From: a virus
Lineage: Duplodnaviria > Heunggongvirae > Uroviricota > Caudoviricetes
Virus record (IMG/VR): IMGVR_UViG_2778261162_000006
Location: 1-56,751 of that record
Direction: 5' to 3' (one strand)
Length of the DNA stretch: 56,751 bases
Both the position numbers and the translations under genes were made by a program. Below, piece after piece: positions 1,459 to 42,284 of the stretch. Below the pieces are notes generated by a model. The model was not told the origin of the DNA and searched no databases. It saw nothing but the letters and a program-made list of their open reading frames with translations. Position 1 is the first letter of the stretch; the number at the start of each line of letters is the position of its first letter.

Positions 1459-2622
1459 TTACACATCATTAGTACCTTCCTTATTTTTTGACTGGGACAA
1501 ATTTGGGACCGATGGGTTTAGGATCGAGTCTATTTGCCGTGCGTGTTCGGTAAGGTGATTAGGTGCAAGGTGAGCATATCGACGAACCATTTCGATAGAC
1601 TCCCAGCCTCCCATTTCCTGTAACACTGACAACGGGACTCCGGCTTGAACCAGCCAACTTGCCCAGGTGTGTCTCAAGTCGTGAAATCTGAAATCATCAA
1701 TACCAGCCCGTCTCAGCGCCGCTTTCCAGGCTGTGTTTGCGTCATACCGCATCTTCCTGACTGTTGGCGCTTTCGTTCCGTCTGGTTTGGTACAGCTTTC
1801 CTTGTACACAAATACCCAACGGTGATGATTCCCGATTTGTTTTTTCAATACGCGACATGCAGTATCATTCAGCGCAACGCCAATTGCGCGGTTTGATTTA
1901 CTCTCTTCCGGGTTTATCCATGCCACCCGGCGCTGCATATCTATTTGTTGCCATTCAAGGTTGATGATGTTCGAGCGTCTTAGGCCTGTTGCCAGTGCAA
2001 ATTCAACAACAGACTTTAATGGCTCCGGACATTCATCAATCAGCCTTTGTGCTTCATGGGGCTCCAGCCAGCGGATCCGTTTATTCTTTGGTTGAGGCAC
2101 TTTAATAATTGGTGCCTTATCCAGCATTTTCCATTCACGCTCTGCGGCTCTTAGTAGGGCCTTTATAAATGAAAGATGCGTAGCCTTCGTTGCAACGGAC
2201 GCTGGTTTTGGCGTGTATTCTGGAACAGGTTTCCCTTTTTTTCTGCATGCTTCTGCCCTGAGTTTCCAGTTTTCCTCATGACGCCGGTTCGTCATTTTCT
2301 GCATTGCTGAATAAATTTTTGATTCAGTAATGTCTCTTAGTTGCATTCCTGCGAAATGTTGAAGCCAGAATCCGATCCGGCTTTTGTCATCGTCCAGTGA
2401 TTTTTTATGTGCTTTCTCTTCAAGCCACCTGACACATGCTTCCTCGAACGTTATATCAGGTATTTCACCAAGTTTGCTGACCCGCCATGCTTCAGCCTTT
2501 AGCTTGTCATGGAGTTCTGTCGCCTGCCTTTTGTCCTTTGTTCCAAGAGACTGTTTAAATCTTTTACCGTTCGGCAATGTGAAACTGGCGTACCATATTT
2601 CACCTCTGCGGAAGAGTGACAT
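1459..2622 (-). CDS. Tyrosine-type phage integrase (Rac IntR-like)
   Basis: 387 aa; C-terminal HDLRHTWAS...RRYAH catalytic motifs; N-terminus [14 protein letters not shown] recalled from Rac-type integrases; adjacent to tRNA. Confidence 0.9.
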
Positions 2623-6738: not shown

Positions 6739-7413
6739 TTAGGCTTTGATTTTGTATCTTCTTGGTTTTCCTGAGAAAATCACTGTACCAATTATAGAGC
6801 AATTACCGTTGATCTTAATGTAAGGCTCAGGCCAGTTTGGGTTTAACGCTTTGAGATAACGCTGTGTCCCATCTTCTATCAACCTTTTGAAGGTGGTTTC
6901 GCCTGTATCGTGCATCAATGCAATAACGTCGTCACCGTGGCAGGCAGGTACTTCAGGATCGACAAAAATCATGTCTCCCGGGCGGTACTCATCAATCATT
7001 GAATCACCTATCACCCGCAAGATATAAGTCATTTCCCCACAGGGTACAGGGCAGGGATACGTTTCTGCTGTGCTCAAATCAACCTCAGAATATCCAACTT
7101 CTTTCCATGCTCCGGCCTGTACCCATGATATGACAGGGACTAATGTGATTTGTTTATTAGTGATTGAAACATCAGGTTTTTTTGTGATGTTCGTTGTCTG
7201 GTGTTCTTGATCGAGCCATCCGACAGGCAGGTCGAAACATTTTTCGATGTGTCGTGCCATGCTGTCACCGATATTTTTAGTAGCACCATCTCCCATAAAC
7301 CTGCTGGTCTGGGTTGGCTCGCGATCAATCATAGTGGCAAAGGAAGAATTCCCGCCAACACCATCTCTCAGTTTTCTGGCGTTAGACCGCCGGATGTCAT
7401 GGATTGTTTTCAT
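6739..7413 (-). CDS. CI-like repressor (HTH plus S24 LexA-like peptidase domain)
   Basis: 224 aa; C-terminal VIGDSM and later Lys-containing motif typical of S24 autopeptidases; divergent from cro-like gene. Confidence 0.85.
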   Translation of the reverse strand: MKTIHDIRRSNARKLRDGVGGNSSFATMIDREPTQTSRFMGDGATKNIGDSMARHIEKCFDLPVGWLDQEHQTTNITKKPDVSITNKQITLVPVISWVQAGAWKEVGYSEVDLSTAETYPCPVPCGEMTYILRVIGDSMIDEYRPGDMIFVDPEVPACHGDDVIALMHDTGETTFKRLIEDGTQRYLKALNPNWPEPYIKINGNCSIIGTVIFSGKPRRYKIKA

Positions 7414-12614: not shown

Positions 12615-12632
12615 TTTTTTCGGAGAAAGGTG

Positions 12633-12995
12633 ATGCGTGATATTCAGATGGTTCTGGATCGTTGGGGAGCATGGGCGGCGAGTGATAGTTCAGGAGTAGA
12701 TTATTCTCCTATAGCTGCTGGGTTTAAAGGGCTTCTTCCCTATACAAGCAAAACACGTCAGGCTTGTTCAGATAGTGATGCATTAATTATTGAAGGTTGT
12801 CTTGCACGTCTAAAGCAAAAAAGACCTGATGAGCATTCGCTTCTTGTGGCACATTATTTATACAGAATATCCAAGCGTAAGATTGCAAAGGCGCGTGGAA
12901 AGGATGAGAAACTAATACGCATTGAGATACAGATGGCTGAGGGGTTTATTGATGGATGCCTTTCAATTCTGGATGTTAAACTTGAAATGGATTAG
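12633..12995 (+). CDS. Late-gene antiterminator Q
   Basis: ~120 aa; position upstream of late region; ATG after GGAGAAAGG. Confidence 0.7.
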   Translation: MRDIQMVLDRWGAWAASDSSGVDYSPIAAGFKGLLPYTSKTRQACSDSDALIIEGCLARLKQKRPDEHSLLVAHYLYRISKRKIAKARGKDEKLIRIEIQMAEGFIDGCLSILDVKLEMD

Positions 12996-13007: not shown

Positions 13008-13883
13008 TTAAGCCGGGGATGTTTCAGATTGAAGTGTTTTTTTCTTGGGCTCGTTCTTAGATGATTTTGTTTTCTTTTGACGATTGAGTTTTTTCTCTTT
13101 GCGTCTGTCAATATAATCGTCCCACCAATCAGGTTTTACTGTTGGGACGATTCTGCAAATATCAGCAATTGCAACAACAATGTTGCTCGATTGCACTCCA
13201 TCGACGTGCTCTGCCAGTGAGGGAGGAACTTGTTGGTTCATTGGATCGAGGATAAAATCCACACCCTTTATACGGGCATGTTTAGCGGCAGGAACGAAAT
13301 CAGCATCGCCAGCAATCAGGACGATCACATCAACTAGTTTCTCATGAGCAAGGATAGTTATATCCATACCAAGCTTAATATCGACGGCTTTTTGTTTATA
13401 TTCGTAGTAGAAATCGTCGTTAGTTAACTCAGACCATTGAATTTCATTACGTAATAGTTTCTTAAGAGTATGTTCTTTTATTTGCCAGTTACCGACGTTT
13501 GAAAGAATACCCATACGAAGTGCCGTTTTACGATTCTTCCTTAGCTCCTCATGAAGCTTGTTTCGTAAAACATTCGGAGCATGTGTCTTGAAGTTTTTAG
13601 TTGATGGGGTTTTGTTGTCTCCATCAGGCAAAGGATACTTAATCTGTTTATCAAGCGGCGGGCAGTCGTAATAGTAAATACGGTAAAGCTCAAGTGGTTC
13701 ACGGTCAGCGTGAGCACCATGTGGAACCTCTACATGAAATTTAACAATTCGCCAGATTATTTTAACAAGTTGTTGGCTGTCTAACTCATGCCCAGGGAAA
13801 TGTTTTCGTAGAAAGTAATCAATCCGACGGATGAAGTAGCCGCCGTCAATCAAGACTGCTGTTTTCTTCATTGAAAAACTCAC
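13008..13883 (-). CDS. NYN/PIN-like domain protein with Lys-rich C-terminal tail
   Basis: VIVLIAGDADFVPAAKHARIKG acidic motif typical of NYN/LabA-like nucleases; opposite orientation to flanking late genes. Confidence 0.65.
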   Translation of the reverse strand: MSFSMKKTAVLIDGGYFIRRIDYFLRKHFPGHELDSQQLVKIIWRIVKFHVEVPHGAHADREPLELYRIYYYDCPPLDKQIKYPLPDGDNKTPSTKNFKTHAPNVLRNKLHEELRKNRKTALRMGILSNVGNWQIKEHTLKKLLRNEIQWSELTNDDFYYEYKQKAVDIKLGMDITILAHEKLVDVIVLIAGDADFVPAAKHARIKGVDFILDPMNQQVPPSLAEHVDGVQSSNIVVAIADICRIVPTVKPDWWDDYIDRRKEKKLNRQKKTKSSKNEPKKKTLQSETSPA

Positions 13884-14625: not shown

Positions 14626-15678
14626 ATGAAAAATACTGTAAAAATAAACAGTGTTGATTTAATCAACGCTGATTGCCTGCATTTTATTCAGTCCCTGCCT
14701 GATGATTCCATTGACCTGATTGTTACCGATCCGCCGTACTTCAAGGTGAAACCCAACGGCTGGGACAATCAGTGGAAAGGGGACGAAGATTACCTTAAGT
14801 GGCTGGACCACTGTCTGGCCCAGTTCTGGCGGGTGTTAAAACCTGCCGGAAGCCTTTACCTGTTCTGTGGGCATCGCCTGGCATCTGATATTGAGATCAT
14901 GATGCGTGAACGTTTCAACGTGCTTAACCATATCATCTGGGCGAAGCCGTCCGGACGTTGGAATGGGTGTAATAAAGAAAGTCTGCGCGCATATTTTCCT
15001 GCCACAGAGCGCGTTCTGTTTGCTGAACATTACCAGGGGCCATATCGCGGCAAAAGTGACGGCTATGCGGCAAAAGAAAGGGAACTCAAACAGCACATAA
15101 TGGCACCGCTGATATCGTATTTCAGGGATGCTCGTGCCGAACTGGGTATAACGGCAAAACAAATTGCCGAAGCCACAGGTAAGAAAAATATGGTTTCCCA
15201 CTGGTTTGGTGCCAGTCAGTGGCAGTTGCCGAATGAGGCTGACTATCGGAAGTTACAGGCACTGTTTTCCCGTATAGCGGCAGAGAAGTTTCAGGAACAA
15301 CAACTGGAACAACCACACCACCAGCTGGTGGCATCTTATGATTCACTGAATCGCAAATATTCTGAATTGCTGGATGAGTTTAAATCTCTCCGGCGCTATT
15401 TCTCCGTATCAGTCTCCGTGCCTTATACCGATGTCTGGACGCATAAGCCCGTTCAGTTCTACCCGGGTAAACATCCGTGCGAGAAACCGGCGGATATGCT
15501 CCGGCAAATAATCAATGCCAGTAGTCGACCTGGTGATCTGGTTGCTGATTTCTTTATGGGATCCGGTTCCACAATAAAAGCAGCAATGGCGCTGGGGCGT
15601 CGGGCGTTAGGTGTTGAACTTGAGTCAGAGCGGTTTAATCAGACGGTGAAAGAGGTAAGTGAACTGGTGGGGAAATAA
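14626..15678 (+). CDS. DNA methyltransferase, beta-class amino-MTase (likely N6-adenine)
   Basis: Motif IV DPPY (TDPPYF) near N-terminus and motif I FFMGSGST near C-terminus. Confidence 0.85.
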   Translation: MKNTVKINSVDLINADCLHFIQSLPDDSIDLIVTDPPYFKVKPNGWDNQWKGDEDYLKWLDHCLAQFWRVLKPAGSLYLFCGHRLASDIEIMMRERFNVLNHIIWAKPSGRWNGCNKESLRAYFPATERVLFAEHYQGPYRGKSDGYAAKERELKQHIMAPLISYFRDARAELGITAKQIAEATGKKNMVSHWFGASQWQLPNEADYRKLQALFSRIAAEKFQEQQLEQPHHQLVASYDSLNRKYSELLDEFKSLRRYFSVSVSVPYTDVWTHKPVQFYPGKHPCEKPADMLRQIINASSRPGDLVADFFMGSGSTIKAAMALGRRALGVELESERFNQTVKEVSELVGK

Positions 15679-28127: not shown

Positions 28128-28276
28128 CGGCTGAATACCTCACTGATCGCTTCTTTGACTGCGCCAGCTACTGGCGCATTAATCCTTTCGAATTGCTGAA
28201 TATGCCGATCAGTGAAATTCCCTTACTGGTCAGTCAGGCAAACAGGATAGAGCAGGAGAAACGCACACATGGCTGA
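28094..28276 (+). CDS. -1 frame extension of the tail assembly chaperone (long form)
   Basis: Open -1 frame continues from slippery T-TTT-TTC (28109..28115) to 28276, overlapping tape measure start. Confidence 0.55.
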   Translation: MACGWFFPPGLTAEYLTDRFFDCASYWRINPFELLNMPISEIPLLVSQANRIEQEKRTHG

Positions 28277-30104
28277 ATTTGAGCTTAAGGCGTTGATCAC
28301 CGGTATCGACAGGCTTTCTCCCGCGCTGTCGAAAATGCAAAAGAAAATCCGGGGATTTAAACGCCAGGCGGAAGAAGCGTCACAGGGTGGGCTGGCGCTT
28401 GGTGGCGGACTGGCAGCGGGTCTGACGCTTTCCCTGAAATCTTATGCCGATCAGGAAAACGCCGCCACCGGGCTGAAAGTCGCCATGATGGATGCGAACG
28501 GCGAGGTTGGAAAGAGCTTTCAGGACATCAATAAACTGGCTATTGGCCTGGGTAACCAGCTACCCGGTACAACGGCTGATTTCCAGAACATGATGCAGAT
28601 GCTGGTGCGTCAGGGGATCCCGGCAGAAAACATTCTGGGTGGTGTGGGTAAAGCGACAGCTTATCTTGCGGTACAACTGAAAAAAACACCGGAAGCGGCT
28701 GCTGAGTTTGCCGCAAAGATGCAGGATGCTACCGGAACGGCGTCAGAAGACATGATGGGGCTGTTCGACACTATCCAGAAGGCGTTTTATCTGGGCGTTG
28801 ACGATACCAACATGTTGTCCTTCTTCACTAAAACCAGTTCTGTTCTGAAGATGGTGAACAAGGACGGTCTTCAGGCTGCACAGAGCCTTGCCCCCATCAG
28901 CGTCATGATGGATCAGATGGGGATGAACGGGGAGTCGGCAGGTAATGCCCTGCGAAAAGTTATCCAGTCCGGATTAAGCGTTAAGAAAATCAGGGACGTC
29001 AATAAAGTCATGGCCCGCCAGAGACTCGGGGTACAGCTCGATTTTACTGACGGCAAAGGAAGTTTTGGCGGTCTTGATAACATGTTCAGGCAACTGGCAA
29101 AGCTGCGAAAACTGACCGACGTTAAGCGAACAGGTGTACTTAAGGCAATATTTGGTGATGATGCCGAAACCCTTCAGGTGGTCAATGCACTAATCGATAA
29201 AGGAAAGGATGGCTACGATCAGATCCAGCAGAAGATGAATAAACAGGCCAGCCTGAATAAACGTGTTCAGGCACAGCTTGGTACGCTGTCCAACCTGTGG
29301 GAGGCAATGACGGGGACCGCAACTAACGGCCTTGCGGCTATTGGCGGCGCATTTTCTGGTGACGCCAAAAATATCACGCAATGGCTGGGGGAGTTGGGGG
29401 AAAAATTCACGAAGTTTGCGGATGAAAATCCCCGGGTTATTCGCGGCGTCGTCGGGCTTGCTGCCGGTCTTGCGATTCTGAAACTGGGATTGATGGGCGT
29501 GGGCAGTGCCATCAGTATCGTCAGCAGGATCATGTCGATGACGCCGATTGGCATGATTGCGACGGCGATTGCCTTGGCTGCGGGATTAATTATCACTAAC
29601 TGGGATGTTGTTGGACCTTATTTCAAGAAGCTCTGGGAAACCATTGGTCCTTATTTTGAGGCTGGCTGGGAACTTCTGAAGAAGGTTTTTGCCTGGTCGC
29701 CGCTGGGGATGGTAATCAATAACTGGGGACCGGTTGTTAAGTGGTTTCAGGATATGTGGGACAAGCTGAAGCCAATTATTGAGTGGTTTACCGACAGTTC
29801 CGGTGACACGGTCGATGCCATTAACTCGGCGCAGTGGGGCGCGGGTGCTTATGATGCTTATGGGACGGGAATACCGGCGCGGGGATACACACCTTATCCG
29901 GCGGTAGATCCGGCTCAGTCAAACAACGCCTCCGATGCTACAGGCCCGAATCCCTTCATGATTAACAAAGCTTCTGCGCCAAAAGTTGACGGTGAGATCA
30001 AGGTCTCTTTTGTGAATTCGCCTCCGGGTATGCGGGTTATGGAAACGCGATCCAGCGGTTTTGATATAAATCACGATGTTGGCTATACGCATATTGGCAG
30101 ATGA
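28269..30104 (+). CDS. Tail tape measure protein
   Basis: 611 aa; Ala/Gly-rich helical and hydrophobic segments. Confidence 0.8.
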   Translation: MAEFELKALITGIDRLSPALSKMQKKIRGFKRQAEEASQGGLALGGGLAAGLTLSLKSYADQENAATGLKVAMMDANGEVGKSFQDINKLAIGLGNQLPGTTADFQNMMQMLVRQGIPAENILGGVGKATAYLAVQLKKTPEAAAEFAAKMQDATGTASEDMMGLFDTIQKAFYLGVDDTNMLSFFTKTSSVLKMVNKDGLQAAQSLAPISVMMDQMGMNGESAGNALRKVIQSGLSVKKIRDVNKVMARQRLGVQLDFTDGKGSFGGLDNMFRQLAKLRKLTDVKRTGVLKAIFGDDAETLQVVNALIDKGKDGYDQIQQKMNKQASLNKRVQAQLGTLSNLWEAMTGTATNGLAAIGGAFSGDAKNITQWLGELGEKFTKFADENPRVIRGVVGLAAGLAILKLGLMGVGSAISIVSRIMSMTPIGMIATAIALAAGLIITNWDVVGPYFKKLWETIGPYFEAGWELLKKVFAWSPLGMVINNWGPVVKWFQDMWDKLKPIIEWFTDSSGDTVDAINSAQWGAGAYDAYGTGIPARGYTPYPAVDPAQSNNASDATGPNPFMINKASAPKVDGEIKVSFVNSPPGMRVMETRSSGFDINHDVGYTHIGR

Positions 30105-30156
30105 CGGAACCAGATATAATTTGTCTTTAAGTTTGTTATCAACTGAAGGGAAATCT

Positions 30157-30534
30157 ATGGGTCTGTTACATGCCATTATAGGTAATGCCGGTGAAATTAA
30201 TGCATCAGATGCACAACAGGAATTAGGGGCTGTTTTAGGTGAGGGAGAAAATGTCGAACTTGCCTATAAACTCATTCGTGACCAAATTATTCTGACTAAC
30301 AGAAGGTTAATTTTTATTGATAAGCAGGGTGTCACAGGGAAAAAAGTAGAGTATCGTTCGATTCCTTATAAATCTGTGACAAACTTTTCTATTGAAACCG
30401 CCGGGCATCTTGATCTTGATGCTGAAATGAAGATATGGATTTCTGGTATTGCAGAACCGATAAAAAAACAGTTCAGTAAAGGAGCAAACATTTATAAATT
30501 GCAGGCTCATCTGGCTCAAAAAATAGCAGGGTAA
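30157..30534 (+). CDS. Bacterial PH-domain-like protein (moron in tail cluster)
   Basis: AT-rich insert; internal ATG after GAAGGGA; own terminator; sequence pattern recalled as bPH/DUF1696-like. Confidence 0.55.
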   Translation: MGLLHAIIGNAGEINASDAQQELGAVLGEGENVELAYKLIRDQIILTNRRLIFIDKQGVTGKKVEYRSIPYKSVTNFSIETAGHLDLDAEMKIWISGIAEPIKKQFSKGANIYKLQAHLAQKIAG

Positions 30535-30560
30535 ACCTTACATTAATTTATGTCTTTCAT

Positions 30561-30582
30561 GCCCACTTCGGTGGGCTTTTTT
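30561..30582 (+). terminator. Rho-independent terminator
   Basis: GCCCAC-TTCG-GTGGGC hairpin followed by TTTTTT. Confidence 0.75.
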
Positions 30583-30597
30583 ATATCCGGAGTTTAT

Positions 30598-31926
30598 ATG
30601 ACGTGGAAAGACAGGCTTCAGGACGCGTCATTTCGCGGTGTGCCGTTTAAGGTTGAAGAAGAAAGTGCGGGAACCGGTCGTCGTGTGGAAACGCACGAAT
30701 ACCCGAACCGCGACAAACCCTATACCGAAGACCTGGGGAAAATCACTTTCCGCCCGTCCATCACGGCTTATGTGGTGGGAGATGACTGCTTTGACCAGCG
30801 CGATCGCCTGATTGACGCGCTGAATAAACCCGGTCCTGGCACGCTTGTCCATCCGACTTACGGTGAGCTGAAAGTCTGTGTTGACGGAGAGGTTCGGGTC
30901 AGCACATCGAAGAGTGAAGGGCGTATTGTCCGCTTTGACCTGAAGTTTGTCGAAGCGGGAGAACTCTCTTACCCCACATCAGGTGCGGCGACGGCGCAGA
31001 CGCTGATGTCATCCTGTTCTGCACTGGATGACTGCATCAGTGACAGTTTCAGTAGTTTCAGTATCGATGGCGTGGCAGATTTTGTGCAGAACGACGTCGT
31101 CGGTAATGCCGGCACAATGCTTGGGTATGTTTCTGATGCGATGAAAGTGGTGGATTCTGCCGTATCGGATGCCGCCAGGCTGTTGCAGGGGGATATCTCG
31201 GTACTTCTGCCGCCGCCATCGTCAGGCAAAAATTTCGTTGAGCAGGTGCAGAAAATGTGGCGTACCGGGAAACGCCTTTATGGTAACGCCAGCGACCTGG
31301 TCACCATGATCAAAACGCTTTCCGGTGTCAGCCTCGGCAGCGATCTGCAACCGCGCGGCGTCTGGAAAACGGACAGTAAAACCACCGCCACGGCGACGCA
31401 GCAGCGTAATGTGGTTGCCAGCACCCTTCGTACGACCGCAATCAGCGAAGCGGCGTATGCCGTCACCCGATTGCCTGCGCCAACAACTTCCGCGGTGATG
31501 CAGAATTCCGCAGTGGGGCAGTCAACAACTTCCGCGCAGAGCACCGGCTGGCCTTCCGTCACGCATCCGGCACTGAACAATGCACCGGCGGTGAAAAACA
31601 CGGTTGACCTGCCAACGTGGGAAGAACTGACTGACATTCGCGACACACTGAATACGGCAATTGATAAGGAGTTGTCCCGTACAACCAGTGATGCGCTGTT
31701 TCTGGCGCTGCGCCGGGTGAAAGCAGATCTGAATGCGGATATCAACACGCGCCTTGAACAGTCTGCTCGGATCATTCAGCGCACGCCGGATGAGGTCTTA
31801 CCCGCGCTGGTGCTGGCGGCGACCTGGTTTGATAACGCGGCGCGTGACGCGGACATTATCCGGCGTAATGCCATTACGCATCCCGGCTTTGTGCCGGTGA
31901 TCCCTCTGAAGGTGCCAGTGCAATGA
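30598..31926 (+). CDS. DNA circularisation protein (Mu N-like)
   Basis: Position after tape measure; ATG after GGAG and downstream of the terminator. Confidence 0.65.
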   Translation: MTWKDRLQDASFRGVPFKVEEESAGTGRRVETHEYPNRDKPYTEDLGKITFRPSITAYVVGDDCFDQRDRLIDALNKPGPGTLVHPTYGELKVCVDGEVRVSTSKSEGRIVRFDLKFVEAGELSYPTSGAATAQTLMSSCSALDDCISDSFSSFSIDGVADFVQNDVVGNAGTMLGYVSDAMKVVDSAVSDAARLLQGDISVLLPPPSSGKNFVEQVQKMWRTGKRLYGNASDLVTMIKTLSGVSLGSDLQPRGVWKTDSKTTATATQQRNVVASTLRTTAISEAAYAVTRLPAPTTSAVMQNSAVGQSTTSAQSTGWPSVTHPALNNAPAVKNTVDLPTWEELTDIRDTLNTAIDKELSRTTSDALFLALRRVKADLNADINTRLEQSARIIQRTPDEVLPALVLAATWFDNAARDADIIRRNAITHPGFVPVIPLKVPVQ

Positions 31927-39530: not shown

Positions 39531-42284
39531 CTATTTGATTGCTGCATTGATTCGTTTATATCTTTGGGTAAAGGCCTCTTTGCCACCTTCCATCACTCGG
39601 CATATCTCATCGCGTATGGAAGGTTCTTGAAGACCCCCTTGCGCCACAATTCTGGTTTGACCAGACCGAATATCAAGGGCAATGACGTTTTCCGCGTCAC
39701 CATTCACGACGATGTTAGCGTTGTGCGTGACTACTAAAACCTGCCGTTTTTGTTTGATCTCACGCAATTGCGTCACGATAAGATCATAGATTAAGTGGTT
39801 ATCAAGATCATCCTCAGGCTGATCAAGTATAAGAGGCTCATTGCCATATGAAAGGATAAATGCAAGGAGAGCCGCCGTTTTTTGCCCCGGAGATCCTTGC
39901 TCTACGGGTTTGAAACTCTCGCCGTTCTTGAGGCTATATCTGATATCCAGAGAATCGCCTGGAAACCAGCACTGAATTCGATCTATCTGTTCCGGAGTTA
40001 GCCCCTGAATGAGGGATACAAAACGTCGATCTTTGCAGGATTCCACCGCCATAGTATCGTTTTCATGGATTGCAAGTAGCGATGATTTTATTTTCTCAAT
40101 TTTATCATCCATAGTATTGGATTGGTCTTGCGTTAAATAAGCCAGCAAGCCCTCATCCCCGTCAACAACTCCAATGTCGCGGTCAAATCCGCCACCACTG
40201 CGGCCGATCAGGTTACGGAATTCTTCCTCAACCGTAATCTTGTTTCCAAACGGAATGACATTGATCTGTACATATGAATTGCCGACGAGAGTATCCTTGA
40301 GAAAGTCCTCACGAAGTTTGGTTATCAATGCTCGATGCTCATGGAGTTTGACCAAGTATTCTTCCGCGCTCTTCTGATGCTGCGCAAGAGTTTCTCTCTT
40401 TTTGTCGAATCCCTTGAGCTTATCTTCGAAATCTTGTCGCTGCTTAACCAGAACACCATATGCAGATGGATCACCTGCGTCTGCTGCGCTGAGTTGACCG
40501 AGGAGGGCGTTGTATTCATGGCTCGCCGCTGTAATTCTTTTCGATATTCCCAAGTCTGATCGAGTTTGATTCCATGAGTTCTTCACATCATCAATCCGCT
40601 GCGCGATCGAGTTCATCTCTGTCTGAAGCTTCTCAAACGTCGCACGGATGTCCTTGATGGTATCGAAGAGTTCTTTGTCATCCGCATTCCCAATGTCGAA
40701 ATATTGTAAATCCAATTCTGCTGGCAGTAGGCTTCCAGAAATATCTCGGACCTGTTCGGCGGAATCCTCCCAAGTCGTTACCCAGGAGTCCATAGCCTTA
40801 CTCTGGTTCTGTCTGAGTTGGTAAGCCTTAAGGACATCCGCGTGGCCCGCCTTTTCAAAAACATCGAGTTTGCGTTTGACGTCTTCAAGCTGACCTTTGG
40901 TTACCGATTCTTCCTGAAGCCCAGCCTGAACTTCACGCTCTTGGGCGCGAAGCGAGAGATATTTGGAAACCAGTTCATCCCACTTAAGCTGCCAATCACG
41001 ATGATTGACCTCCGGGGCATCATCGACAACCTGCAAGAGTGCTTGGGGATGCTTTGCCAATTCGAATATCTGTTTCTGGCTGTAAATCCTGACAGGAAAT
41101 CGTTGTGCTATGTCTCCCTCGGAATCACACCAGACTCCGGGAGCGGTCTCTTCCTCGATGCTGTATATGTCGTCGGTATTAGACCAGGTGATTCGGAAAC
41201 GGCCACCGTCTTTTCGAAAGCCTACAGTTATTTTCGTGGAATCTTTTAACAGCCCTTCATCTTGGCGGTCTTTCGAAGTTTGACTGTATTTGGTAAATTC
41301 CTTTTCAAGGCTCTTGGGGATTTCTCCCTTTCGTTTAAGAGCAATCCGCAGGAATTCCAACGAAGTCGATTTCCCAGTGCCTCGTCCACCAATGATAGTG
41401 TTGAGCCAGGGGTTCAGTTGACAAGTTAAAGATTGCCCTCGTCCTAAGTACTTCGCATCATCAACCACGATACTTTCGATGGCAAGTTGTCCATGGATAT
41501 TTGGGTCACCAGTGAAGTTGTCCGACCGCTTCAGTGAAAGAGCCCCATCAACGAGCGCCAGCCGTAATCCGTCATAAGATGGCTCCGACATTTTTACCCA
41601 AGTGAAATGGCTACCCGGGTAGCGTTGATTTCCGGTACCGGACGGATGATGGGAATCGGTTCCAAGAATCTCTGCCCAATTCAAATTCTTGCCAATATAG
41701 AGCTGCGGTTTTGCTTTAGCAAGGTCCGTTACCTCCATAGCAAAAACACATTTGTTGTCAAGCACCTGCTCTAGTGTGTTGCCCGTACAGACCGTAAAAA
41801 GTCCGCTAGCCTGATCTACATGAGCAGGTATTGCAAGTCCTCCTGACCTAGCAATTTCGTCGATCACCTCAACTGCTGAGCATTCAGAGCAGCCGTCGCT
41901 CTTTCCTTTGGTGCCGCGATACCTGACCGCACCAAGCAGTGAGTCGATATCAGAGGTTGTCTTGTCTTCGCCGAAAATGGCCAGAATATGGATATTCCCC
42001 TGAACAGTAAGCTCAACACCTGGGAATAAGTAGAGTGGTCGATAATCTTCATGACTCTCAGATGCCAGTTCCTTGAGTGCCTGCTTGAGCGGATCAATCC
42101 AAGCGCCTGAATTATGGTCCGTGACAGCGACACAATCGATGCCTTGTCGCATGTAGTTGAGCAGCCAATCTTTATGAGTGATCTGCATATACTGGGCCTG
42201 ATTAGGGCCTTTTCCATAATCGTCCGATGCCGGAGTGTGATTATGGAAGTCGAATTTCCACCACCGAGAACCAATCCAGTTCAT
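39531..42284 (-). CDS. PHP phosphoesterase fused to SMC/Rad50-like ABC ATPase with coiled-coil (Ppl-like defence protein candidate)
   Basis: N-terminal FDFHNHTPASDDYG, VAVTDHN, IPAHV, GTDSHH PHP motifs; Walker A GGRGTGKST; signature-like SPGQKTAALLA; Walker B LILDQPEDDLD; H-loop VLVVTHN; long E/K/Q-rich insert between Walker A and B. Confidence 0.75.
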   Translation of the reverse strand: MNWIGSRWWKFDFHNHTPASDDYGKGPNQAQYMQITHKDWLLNYMRQGIDCVAVTDHNSGAWIDPLKQALKELASESHEDYRPLYLFPGVELTVQGNIHILAIFGEDKTTSDIDSLLGAVRYRGTKGKSDGCSECSAVEVIDEIARSGGLAIPAHVDQASGLFTVCTGNTLEQVLDNKCVFAMEVTDLAKAKPQLYIGKNLNWAEILGTDSHHPSGTGNQRYPGSHFTWVKMSEPSYDGLRLALVDGALSLKRSDNFTGDPNIHGQLAIESIVVDDAKYLGRGQSLTCQLNPWLNTIIGGRGTGKSTSLEFLRIALKRKGEIPKSLEKEFTKYSQTSKDRQDEGLLKDSTKITVGFRKDGGRFRITWSNTDDIYSIEEETAPGVWCDSEGDIAQRFPVRIYSQKQIFELAKHPQALLQVVDDAPEVNHRDWQLKWDELVSKYLSLRAQEREVQAGLQEESVTKGQLEDVKRKLDVFEKAGHADVLKAYQLRQNQSKAMDSWVTTWEDSAEQVRDISGSLLPAELDLQYFDIGNADDKELFDTIKDIRATFEKLQTEMNSIAQRIDDVKNSWNQTRSDLGISKRITAASHEYNALLGQLSAADAGDPSAYGVLVKQRQDFEDKLKGFDKKRETLAQHQKSAEEYLVKLHEHRALITKLREDFLKDTLVGNSYVQINVIPFGNKITVEEEFRNLIGRSGGGFDRDIGVVDGDEGLLAYLTQDQSNTMDDKIEKIKSSLLAIHENDTMAVESCKDRRFVSLIQGLTPEQIDRIQCWFPGDSLDIRYSLKNGESFKPVEQGSPGQKTAALLAFILSYGNEPLILDQPEDDLDNHLIYDLIVTQLREIKQKRQVLVVTHNANIVVNGDAENVIALDIRSGQTRIVAQGGLQEPSIRDEICRVMEGGKEAFTQRYKRINAAIK

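Follow-up and report, generated by a model that had tools for sequence, protein, structure and literature searches.

Why would a prophage carry a gene of bacterial chromosomal type in the middle of its tail operon? This question is raised by a stretch of DNA of 56,751 nt (IMG/VR record IMGVR_UViG_2778261162_000006, further referred to as the window), which carries a prophage with lambdoid organization and a Mu-like contractile tail. Between the gene for the tail tape measure protein (TMP) and that for a DNA-circularization/Mu gpN-like tail protein (DNA-circ), a single gene encodes a soluble protein of 125 amino acids that consists of one bacterial pleckstrin homology (PH) domain of the PHb1 type. 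This gene and its product are here called the PH gene and the PH protein. Comparison with related tail clusters indicates that the segment from approximately 30065 to 30582 is very likely a moron-type accessory cassette, located in a cargo slot at the TMP/DNA-circ junction of an SfV/SfII-like lambdoid prophage.

A cargo slot between two tail genes

In megablast comparisons, the tail region of the window is 95–97% identical to that of the Shigella serotype-converting phages SfII, SfI and SfV, and approximately 433 bp are missing from the same junction in SfI, SfII, SfV and vB_EcoM-689R6. A survey of 5426 complete E. coli genomes, in 1094 of which the tail region was found, gives a similar picture. 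The slot is empty in 532 genomes, with a TMP/DNA-circ junction of 60 nt, while 28 genomes contain the PH gene, always in this slot. Among the strains with a cassette that is 100% identical are E. coli G3/10 and G5. Approximately 215 genomes hold one of three unrelated envelope-protein genes in place of the PH gene. These encode a 170-residue protein with a signal peptide (phrog_8976; 84 genomes), a membrane-anchored protein with a tRNA_anti-like oligonucleotide/oligosaccharide-binding (OB) fold, encoded on the opposite strand (about 59–74 genomes, 59 at a coverage of at least 80%), and a 225-residue lipoprotein with the lipobox LLGGC (54 genomes). Counted over the 5426 complete genomes, about 780 hold this multi-allelic cargo slot at the TMP/DNA-circ junction. 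Since the additional DNA is lacking from the junction in SfI, SfII, SfV and vB_EcoM-689R6, and since other genomes have an empty slot or other cargo, the PH gene itself is cargo. In line with this, the universal presence at this position that a preliminary description of the locus had named as evidence against its own interpretation was not found among the related tail clusters.

The alternative slot genes were located at L005:834-1280(-), L008:834-1220(-), L006:893-1570(+), L007:833-1510(+) and L002:3584-4096(+) of the compared loci. A PADLOC scan of the alternative cargo proteins gave no match. The three envelope proteins are plausible candidates for superinfection exclusion.

The position of the PH gene in the tail cluster and its co-transcription with tail genes are the only indications that the PH protein might be a structural or assembly component of the tail, such as a chaperone that works between tape measure and baseplate hub. 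Such a component would be conserved in presence and position among related clusters. Instead, the PH gene is mostly missing, as illustrated by the viable phages SfI, SfII and SfV and by the 532 E. coli genomes with the same but empty junction. Moreover, it is replaced by unrelated genes, one of them on the opposite strand, it is split by IS1 in 4 of the 28 genomes that carry it, and the closest relatives outside phages are solitary genes on chromosomes. A role as tail component is effectively refuted by these observations, and the PH gene is dispensable for the tail.

Two further records concern the state of the cassette. The PH gene of E. coli EC_J_9 and of three further genomes is interrupted by IS1B (L003:3136-4289) and is therefore annotated as two fragments, each labeled 'PH domain-containing protein'. 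In addition, a complete SfV-like tail cluster, PH cassette included, is present on a circular 'plasmid' record of 70 kb (L004; pMTY18781-3, NZ_AP023208.1). This record may represent a phage-plasmid, or else a prophage that was excised or wrongly binned.

Within the window, the PH gene runs on the + strand from the ATG at 30157 to the TAA at 30532..30534, giving a coding sequence of 378 nt. It is the single open reading frame (ORF; 30157..30534, +) of the 493-nt spacer between the TMP gene (28269..30104, +; Pfam PhageMin_Tail, E = 1e-26) and the DNA-circ gene (30598..31926, +; Pfam DNA_circ_N, E = 6e-34). The same 378-nt coding sequence is annotated by PGAP in other genomes as 'PH domain-containing protein', and for the DNA-circ gene the same start codon is chosen by PGAP in related genomes. 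A ribosome binding site (RBS), AAGGGA, can be read from the sequence at 30146..30151 (+), 5 nt upstream of the start codon of the PH gene, and the bases GAAGGG at this site are invariant in all six aligned copies of the cassette. The RBS of the DNA-circ gene, GGAG at 30589..30592 (+), directly follows the T-run of a terminator that is discussed below. The base composition of the segment deviates from that of its surroundings, with a GC content of 0.37–0.40 in 300-nt windows over 30050..30650 versus 0.51–0.61 on both sides. The PH gene itself has a GC content of 0.38, compared to 0.52–0.57 in the neighboring genes, and a GC content at third codon positions of 0.29, compared to 0.57–0.64 for the TMP, DNA-circ and sheath genes. 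At the upstream side, the last ~40 nt of the TMP gene (about 30065..30104) co-vary with the type of cargo and are part of the exchanged module; the TMP 3′ ends differ among the empty, PH and OB-fold states of the slot.

The preliminary description had reported an ORF in an AT-rich insert of ~500 bp at 30105..30582, flanked by tail genes and ending in a terminator. All these elements are present and the coordinates are accurate, while the reported size comes close to the ~433 bp by which the segment exceeds the equivalent junction in SfII, SfI and SfV.

Some other features were considered and discarded. Two minus-strand ORFs that overlap the PH gene (30307..30519 and 30366..30491) were treated as spurious in view of the Pfam match and the purifying selection in the + frame. 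A longer version of the PH ORF, starting at 30076 inside the TMP gene, was dropped because the family alignment and the PGAP annotations start at the methionine at 30157. An Rfam scan of 29800..30800 yielded sub-threshold matches only (isrB, 24 bits versus 35), driven by the terminator, and no RNA gene is proposed.

The PH protein and its chromosomal relatives

By every criterion that can be tested, the PH protein is a member of Pfam family PF08000 (bPH_1 or PHb1, formerly DUF1696). The match has an E-value of 3.1e-48 and a score of 163.2 bits, with a gathering cut-off of 27.7, and spans residues 3–122 of 125, corresponding to profile positions 2–121 of 122. The pattern that was initially described as bacterial PH-like is hereby extended to a full-length family match. 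The protein also matches phrog_7115, for which no function is annotated (E = 6e-54), and the crystallized PHb1 proteins 3dcx and 3hsa (E ~1e-39, ~60% identity). It has the group-1 architecture, i.e., a stand-alone domain of 125 residues with the conserved core residues kept. Compared with 23–27 homologs from several phyla (Gammaproteobacteria, Clostridia, Bacilli), all invariant columns are retained, including Y37, R41, D42, R50, Q57, G58, G61, K63, P70, Y71, D86-L87-D88 and W94. No hydrophobic segment is present in the protein (maximal Kyte–Doolittle value over 19 residues of 0.58), nor was a signal peptide or lipobox found.

An AlphaFold2 monomer model of the PH protein, with a predicted local distance difference test score (pLDDT) of 82.8, has β-strands at residues 33–107 and a helix at residues 112–124. 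The top Foldseek matches of this model are again 3dcx and 3hsa, with template modeling (TM) scores of 0.78–0.86 and a probability of 1.00; the TM score to 3dcx is 0.81–0.86. The predicted fold is PH-like, namely a seven-stranded β-sandwich capped by a C-terminal helix. PHb1 proteins were described as dome-shaped rings with C5 symmetry and a conserved electronegative site at the rim, with protein and not lipid as the predicted ligand (Xu et al., 2010; PMC2817789). Since the PH protein is ~60% identical to 3dcx and 3hsa, it probably forms such a dome-shaped pentameric ring, binding another protein and not lipid. It shares family, length and single-domain architecture with PHb1 of Shewanella loihica (Shew_0819, 3dcx) and S. 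amazonensis (3hsa), and with YvbH, YjqA and YozO of Bacillus subtilis. It differs from these chromosomal proteins in that the present copy is encoded in a prophage tail operon and in that its ring formation is assumed.

The nearest non-phage relatives of the PH protein are encoded by stand-alone chromosomal genes. The identity amounts to 72% with the product of a lone chromosomal gene of Edaphovirga and to 60–66% with chromosomal copies in Photobacterium, Endozoicomonas, Clostridium and Bacillus. Because of these identities and the retained invariant residues, it is concluded that the PH gene was captured from a bacterial chromosome and has barely changed since.

Such a history would also suit a gene that serves the host in a way unrelated to phages, as an extra PHb1 copy that keeps an ancestral role linked to envelope stress. 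In Bacillus, one PHb1 paralog belongs to the sigma-W envelope-stress regulon, and B. subtilis YozO is controlled by sigma-W and induced by stress (Xu et al., 2010; PMC2817789). The very high identity to chromosomal proteins across phyla and the conservation of all invariant residues are consistent with an ancestral role. Moreover, megablast detected no copy of the cassette DNA elsewhere in E. coli than in the prophage slot, a search that did not extend to divergent bPH_1 genes on the chromosome, and the prophage may thus supply a function that the host is missing. Nevertheless, a benefit of this kind is considered rather unlikely, as the rare and patchy occurrence of the gene (28 of 5426 genomes), together with its disruption by IS1 in four of them, gives no sign of a strong general advantage. 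In addition, PHb1 genes in other phages have defense-like neighbors, and the other cargo of the same slot resembles exclusion-type envelope proteins.

Transfer, selection and expression signals

The PH gene is also present in the same slot in Edwardsiella phage EPP-1, in an Edwardsiella-type assembly (L013) and in IMG/VR contigs. In these Edwardsiella-type copies, the PH protein is 89–91% identical, versus 67–69% for TMP and DNA-circ. The native TMP of the Edwardsiella-type phages ends about 90 nt earlier. In EPP-1 and the related assembly (L010:3925-3970 and L013:5925-5970), a fossil of the C-terminus of an E. coli-type TMP is left, out of frame, in the non-coding DNA between the native TMP stop codon and the PH gene; it reads IDVNHDAEHTSIGR*, versus FDINHDVGYTHIGR* in the E. 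coli-type TMP. Because this fossil lies upstream of the Edwardsiella PH gene, the cassette must have been imported together with a 3′ end of TMP, and the fossil marks an old transfer between lineages. Two mosaics add to this picture. In one of these (L016), an identical cassette is found behind a TMP gene that is 62% identical, and in the other (L027), the second, Edwardsiella-type allele is combined with an E. coli-type DNA-circ gene. Altogether, the cassette moves between phage lineages as one unit, which comprises the 3′ end of TMP, the conserved block before the gene, the gene itself and its terminator.

Between the two PH alleles, i.e., compared with the Edwardsiella-phage copies, the proportion of synonymous differences (pS) is 0.75, which is saturated, and that of nonsynonymous differences (pN) 0.06, corresponding to a ratio of nonsynonymous to synonymous substitution rates (dN/dS) of ~0.02–0.03. 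This ratio points to strong purifying selection on the PH protein. As a neutral benchmark, the alleles are 37% identical at 4-fold degenerate sites and 38–46% identical in untranslated regions. The block upstream of the gene (30092..30121) is 77% identical to that of the Edwardsiella cassettes, and the terminator 96–100%. Accordingly, a neutral hitch-hiker or decaying remnant without current function is a very improbable description of the gene. Its low frequency and the persistence of the IS1-split copies could be read in that way, but they are outweighed by the low dN/dS at saturated synonymous sites, by the reading frame, which is intact in all copies other than the IS1-split ones, and by the conservation of the flanking signals.

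The intrinsic terminator downstream of the PH gene is located at 30561..30582 (+) and consists of a GCCCAC/GTGGGC stem at 30561..30576 with a TTCG loop, followed by T6 at 30577..30582. With a ΔG of -12.7 kcal/mol and a z-score of -3.0, it is the sole terminator-like site within 29500..31200. In the empty slot, as found in SfII and the 532 E. coli genomes, a near-identical hairpin is present at the same place, TCCCACTCCGGTGGGA-T6, i.e., TCCCAC-TCCG-GTGGGA-T6. In SfII, it is annotated as a rho-independent terminator. Relative to the PH-type hairpin, its closing base pair has changed in a compensatory manner and one base of the loop is different. The other two + strand cassettes have their own hairpin and T-run, joined to the same TTTTTTATATCCGGAG, and in the minus-strand OB-fold cassette a hairpin directly follows the TMP stop codon instead. 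The exact PH-type hairpin accompanies the cassette into the Edwardsiella phages. The terminator that the preliminary description had attributed to the insert is thus real and conserved with the cassette, but it is not diagnostic, as a homologous hairpin occurs in the empty slot.

In lambdoid phages, Q enables late transcription to proceed beyond terminators of this kind. The Q-type antiterminator of the present prophage (12630..12995, +; Pfam Phage_antitermQ, E = 8.9e-52) is the likely reason why the late transcript would pass a terminator in the middle of an operon. The role of Q in antitermination has been described for lambdoid and Sf phages (PMC3851460).

A candidate sigma-70 promoter for the PH gene is found at 30094..30120 (+), with TTGGCA (30094..30099) and TATAAT (30115..30120) separated by a 15-nt spacer. 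Two scans were run, a standard one for canonical promoters with spacers of 16–18 nt and a relaxed one. In the relaxed scan, this is the only site on the + strand of the whole window that matches at least 11 of the 12 consensus positions, and the probability that a match of this quality occurs by chance in the 100 bp preceding the PH gene is ~0.01. Expression of the PH gene in the lysogen from this candidate promoter is plausible. An alternative combination of TTGATA at 30060 with TATACG was rejected, as its -10 element is not conserved in the second allele. The only other match of at least 11 of 12 in the window, TTGACA-16-CATAAT at ~6699 (-), lies just downstream of the S24 repressor gene and is probably an early or lysogeny-region promoter.

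As no terminator separates the PH gene from the TMP gene, it must be co-transcribed with the late tail operon. It could then be an accessory gene that is used late only, its product being made from the Q-antiterminated transcript and serving the phage cycle instead of the lysogen, for example in counter-defense, in the control of envelope integrity or lysis timing, or in exclusion late in infection. The gene is indeed co-oriented with the tail operon, its start codon (30157) is reached from the TMP stop (30104) without an intervening terminator, and EPP-1, one of the carriers of the PH gene, was obtained as a phage that forms plaques and is strongly lytic. Moreover, the standard scan called no promoter on the + strand, and the -10 element of the second allele is TATAAC. 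On the other hand, relatives of the gene in other temperate phages are found in repressor-side lysogeny modules and not in late operons, and approximately 97% of the related tails lack the gene. The upstream block, with the best sigma-70 match on the strand, is also conserved far above the neutral level. Taken together, a purely late function is judged unlikely. The preliminary description had gone further in the opposite direction by suggesting a lysogen-expressed gene, for which the sequence offers TTGGCA-15-TATAAT in a relaxed scan as the only + strand match of at least 11 of 12. Of its interpretation as a whole, the bacterial PH domain and the insert in an SfV/Mu-like tail cluster find support, in contrast to the terminator as a diagnostic feature and to expression in the lysogen.

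Three of the five defining features of morons (as listed in PMC3594210) are recognized in the cassette. Firstly, it is extra DNA that close relatives lack at this position. Secondly, its base composition deviates. Thirdly, it has a terminator of its own, with the reservation that the empty slot contains a homologous hairpin. As to the promoter, there is the candidate with its suboptimal spacer and the negative result of the standard scan. The fifth feature, expression from the repressed prophage, is plausible.

Possible function and comparison with known systems

How the cassette might work can be outlined as follows. During lytic growth, the PH gene would be transcribed within the late operon, and Q-modified RNA polymerase would continue past the hairpin at 30561..30582 into the baseplate genes. 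Transcription from the weak sigma-70 promoter at 30094..30120 would probably cover the PH gene alone in the lysogen, and the terminator would keep this transcript out of the baseplate genes. Acting on the cytoplasmic side of the envelope, the PH protein would then protect the lysogen, superinfecting phages being the most likely threat. This is the functional reading that is preferred, tentatively and with less than even confidence; a retained ancestral role in envelope stress ranks second and a late-only role third.

A number of observations weigh against this outline. The terminator is not cassette-specific and carries no signature of insertion, because the empty slot holds a near-identical hairpin. 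The candidate promoter escapes the standard scan, its 15-nt spacer is suboptimal, and its counterpart in the second allele lacks the highly conserved final T of the -10 element. The PH protein has no envelope anchor of the kind that characterizes superinfection-exclusion proteins such as HK97 gp15, P22 SieA and those of the lactococcal Sie2009 type, and in this it differs from the three alternative cargo proteins of the slot, which do have envelope features. A scan of the PH protein against PADLOC-DB v2 gave no family at E ≤ 0.1. That all family-invariant residues are kept argues for an ancestral activity over a new phage-specific one, and no conserved partner gene was found near six chromosomal homologs (in Edaphovirga, Photobacterium, Endozoicomonas, Clostridium, Bacillus and one metagenomic sequence), so that their surroundings offer no hint of a function. 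In the literature, no functional study of a single-domain PHb1 protein was found, nor a paper mentioning the accession of the PH protein. A search on the function of PHb1 and YvbH/YjqA/YozO and on the tail junction as a hotspot, partly swamped by papers on the brown planthopper ('BPH'), returned nothing beyond Xu et al. (2010) and a remark on sie285.

Protection of the lysogen is suggested by PHb genes elsewhere, together with the exclusion-like envelope proteins that take the place of the PH protein in other copies of the slot. Such genes were noted in phage lysogeny modules, namely ORF124 of ul36 and ORF77 of Min1 (Xu et al., 2010; PMC2817789). In Lactococcus phage ul36, the gene order is cI, metalloprotease, ORF355, PH (ORF124) and int. 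ORF2 of bIL285 (listed as 'sie285') encodes a membrane protein with a PHb domain that is expressed in lysogens (PMC6127208). Like the present gene, ORF124 of ul36, ORF77 of Microbacterium phage Min1 and ORF2 of bIL285 represent this domain family as non-essential cargo of temperate phages. However, they are located between the genes for integrase and repressor, in the orientation of the latter, and not in a late tail operon like the present gene. Their products are only 33–40% identical to the PH protein, and sie285 has an additional membrane segment, whereas the present protein is soluble. In IMG/VR contigs, PH copies of 57–58% identity are found beside helix-turn-helix regulators, an integrase, a Schlafen/AlbA_2 protein and a DUF6414 protein.

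A separate case is the 186-like Vibrio phage 10N.286.45.B12_PE001 (L033:3450-5737), in which cI, PHb1, a SIR2-like gene and int follow each other, all co-oriented. The SIR2-like neighbor has 612 residues and matches Aga_SIR2 of PADLOC (E = 3e-64). PHb1 and this protein may form a two-gene unit in the Vibrio phage.

The closest functional analog is the gene 15 moron of HK97. It is likewise an extra gene adjoining the TMP gene in the tail operon, with deviant GC content, a bacterial origin and promoter and terminator signals (Juhala et al., 2000; Cumby et al., 2012; PMC3594210). Its product, gp15, is a small protein of the inner membrane, divergent from YebO, for which a block of DNA injection was shown (PMC3594210). 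Unlike gp15, the PH protein has no membrane segment and has hardly diverged from its cellular relatives. Another parallel is offered by the cargo (defense) hotspots of temperate phages, for example those of P2 and P4 (Rousset et al., 2022, cited in PMC10884400), where alternative unrelated genes likewise occupy a fixed position, bordered by conserved core genes, in near-identical prophages. Unlike these hotspots, the present slot lies inside a structural operon, none of its four cargo types matches PADLOC models, and its cargo is a single small gene, mostly for an envelope protein.

Other parts of the prophage may be briefly mentioned. The integrase gene (1459..2622, -) and the S24 repressor gene (6739..7413, -) are located in the left part of the window, and downstream of Q, the holin gene is followed by the head and tail genes. 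Between Q (12630..12995) and the genes for a DNA methylase (14626..15678) and the holin, 13008..13883 (-) encodes a 291-residue NYN-domain protein, at the classical moron position between Q and the lysis genes, as in SfIV. At 39531..42284 (-), a 917-residue AAA-type ATPase is encoded that matches the 'Ppl' model of PADLOC over its full length (E = 2e-157). In related genomes, this gene is annotated by PGAP as 'TrlF family AAA-like ATPase' and adjoins tail-fibre genes and that of the pinE invertase. At its right end, the prophage thus seems to carry a second and much larger cargo or defense gene.

Phage-borne PHb genes had already been noted in 2010 (Xu et al., 2010), and in other respects the PH cassette is an ordinary moron. 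What is new here is its location in the tail operon, the multi-allelic slot and the transfer between genera marked by a fossil. The SfV-type TMP/gpN-like junction is present in roughly one fifth of the E. coli genomes, and the multi-allelic tail slot is useful for the annotation of prophages and for the mining of small lysogen-conversion genes. PF08000 is a widespread, highly conserved and structurally solved family, for which a phage-borne copy under selection in an exclusion-like slot offers a simple genetic handle. It is conceivable, though doubtful, that the junction is an unrecognized hotspot for exclusion or defense cargo and that, at the same time, the soluble PHb1 ring is a new anti-phage factor acting from the cytoplasmic side. 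The ring might, for example, cap or bind an inner-membrane component or an incoming tail or tape-measure component. If both were true, this would be the first physiological function for the PF08000 family.

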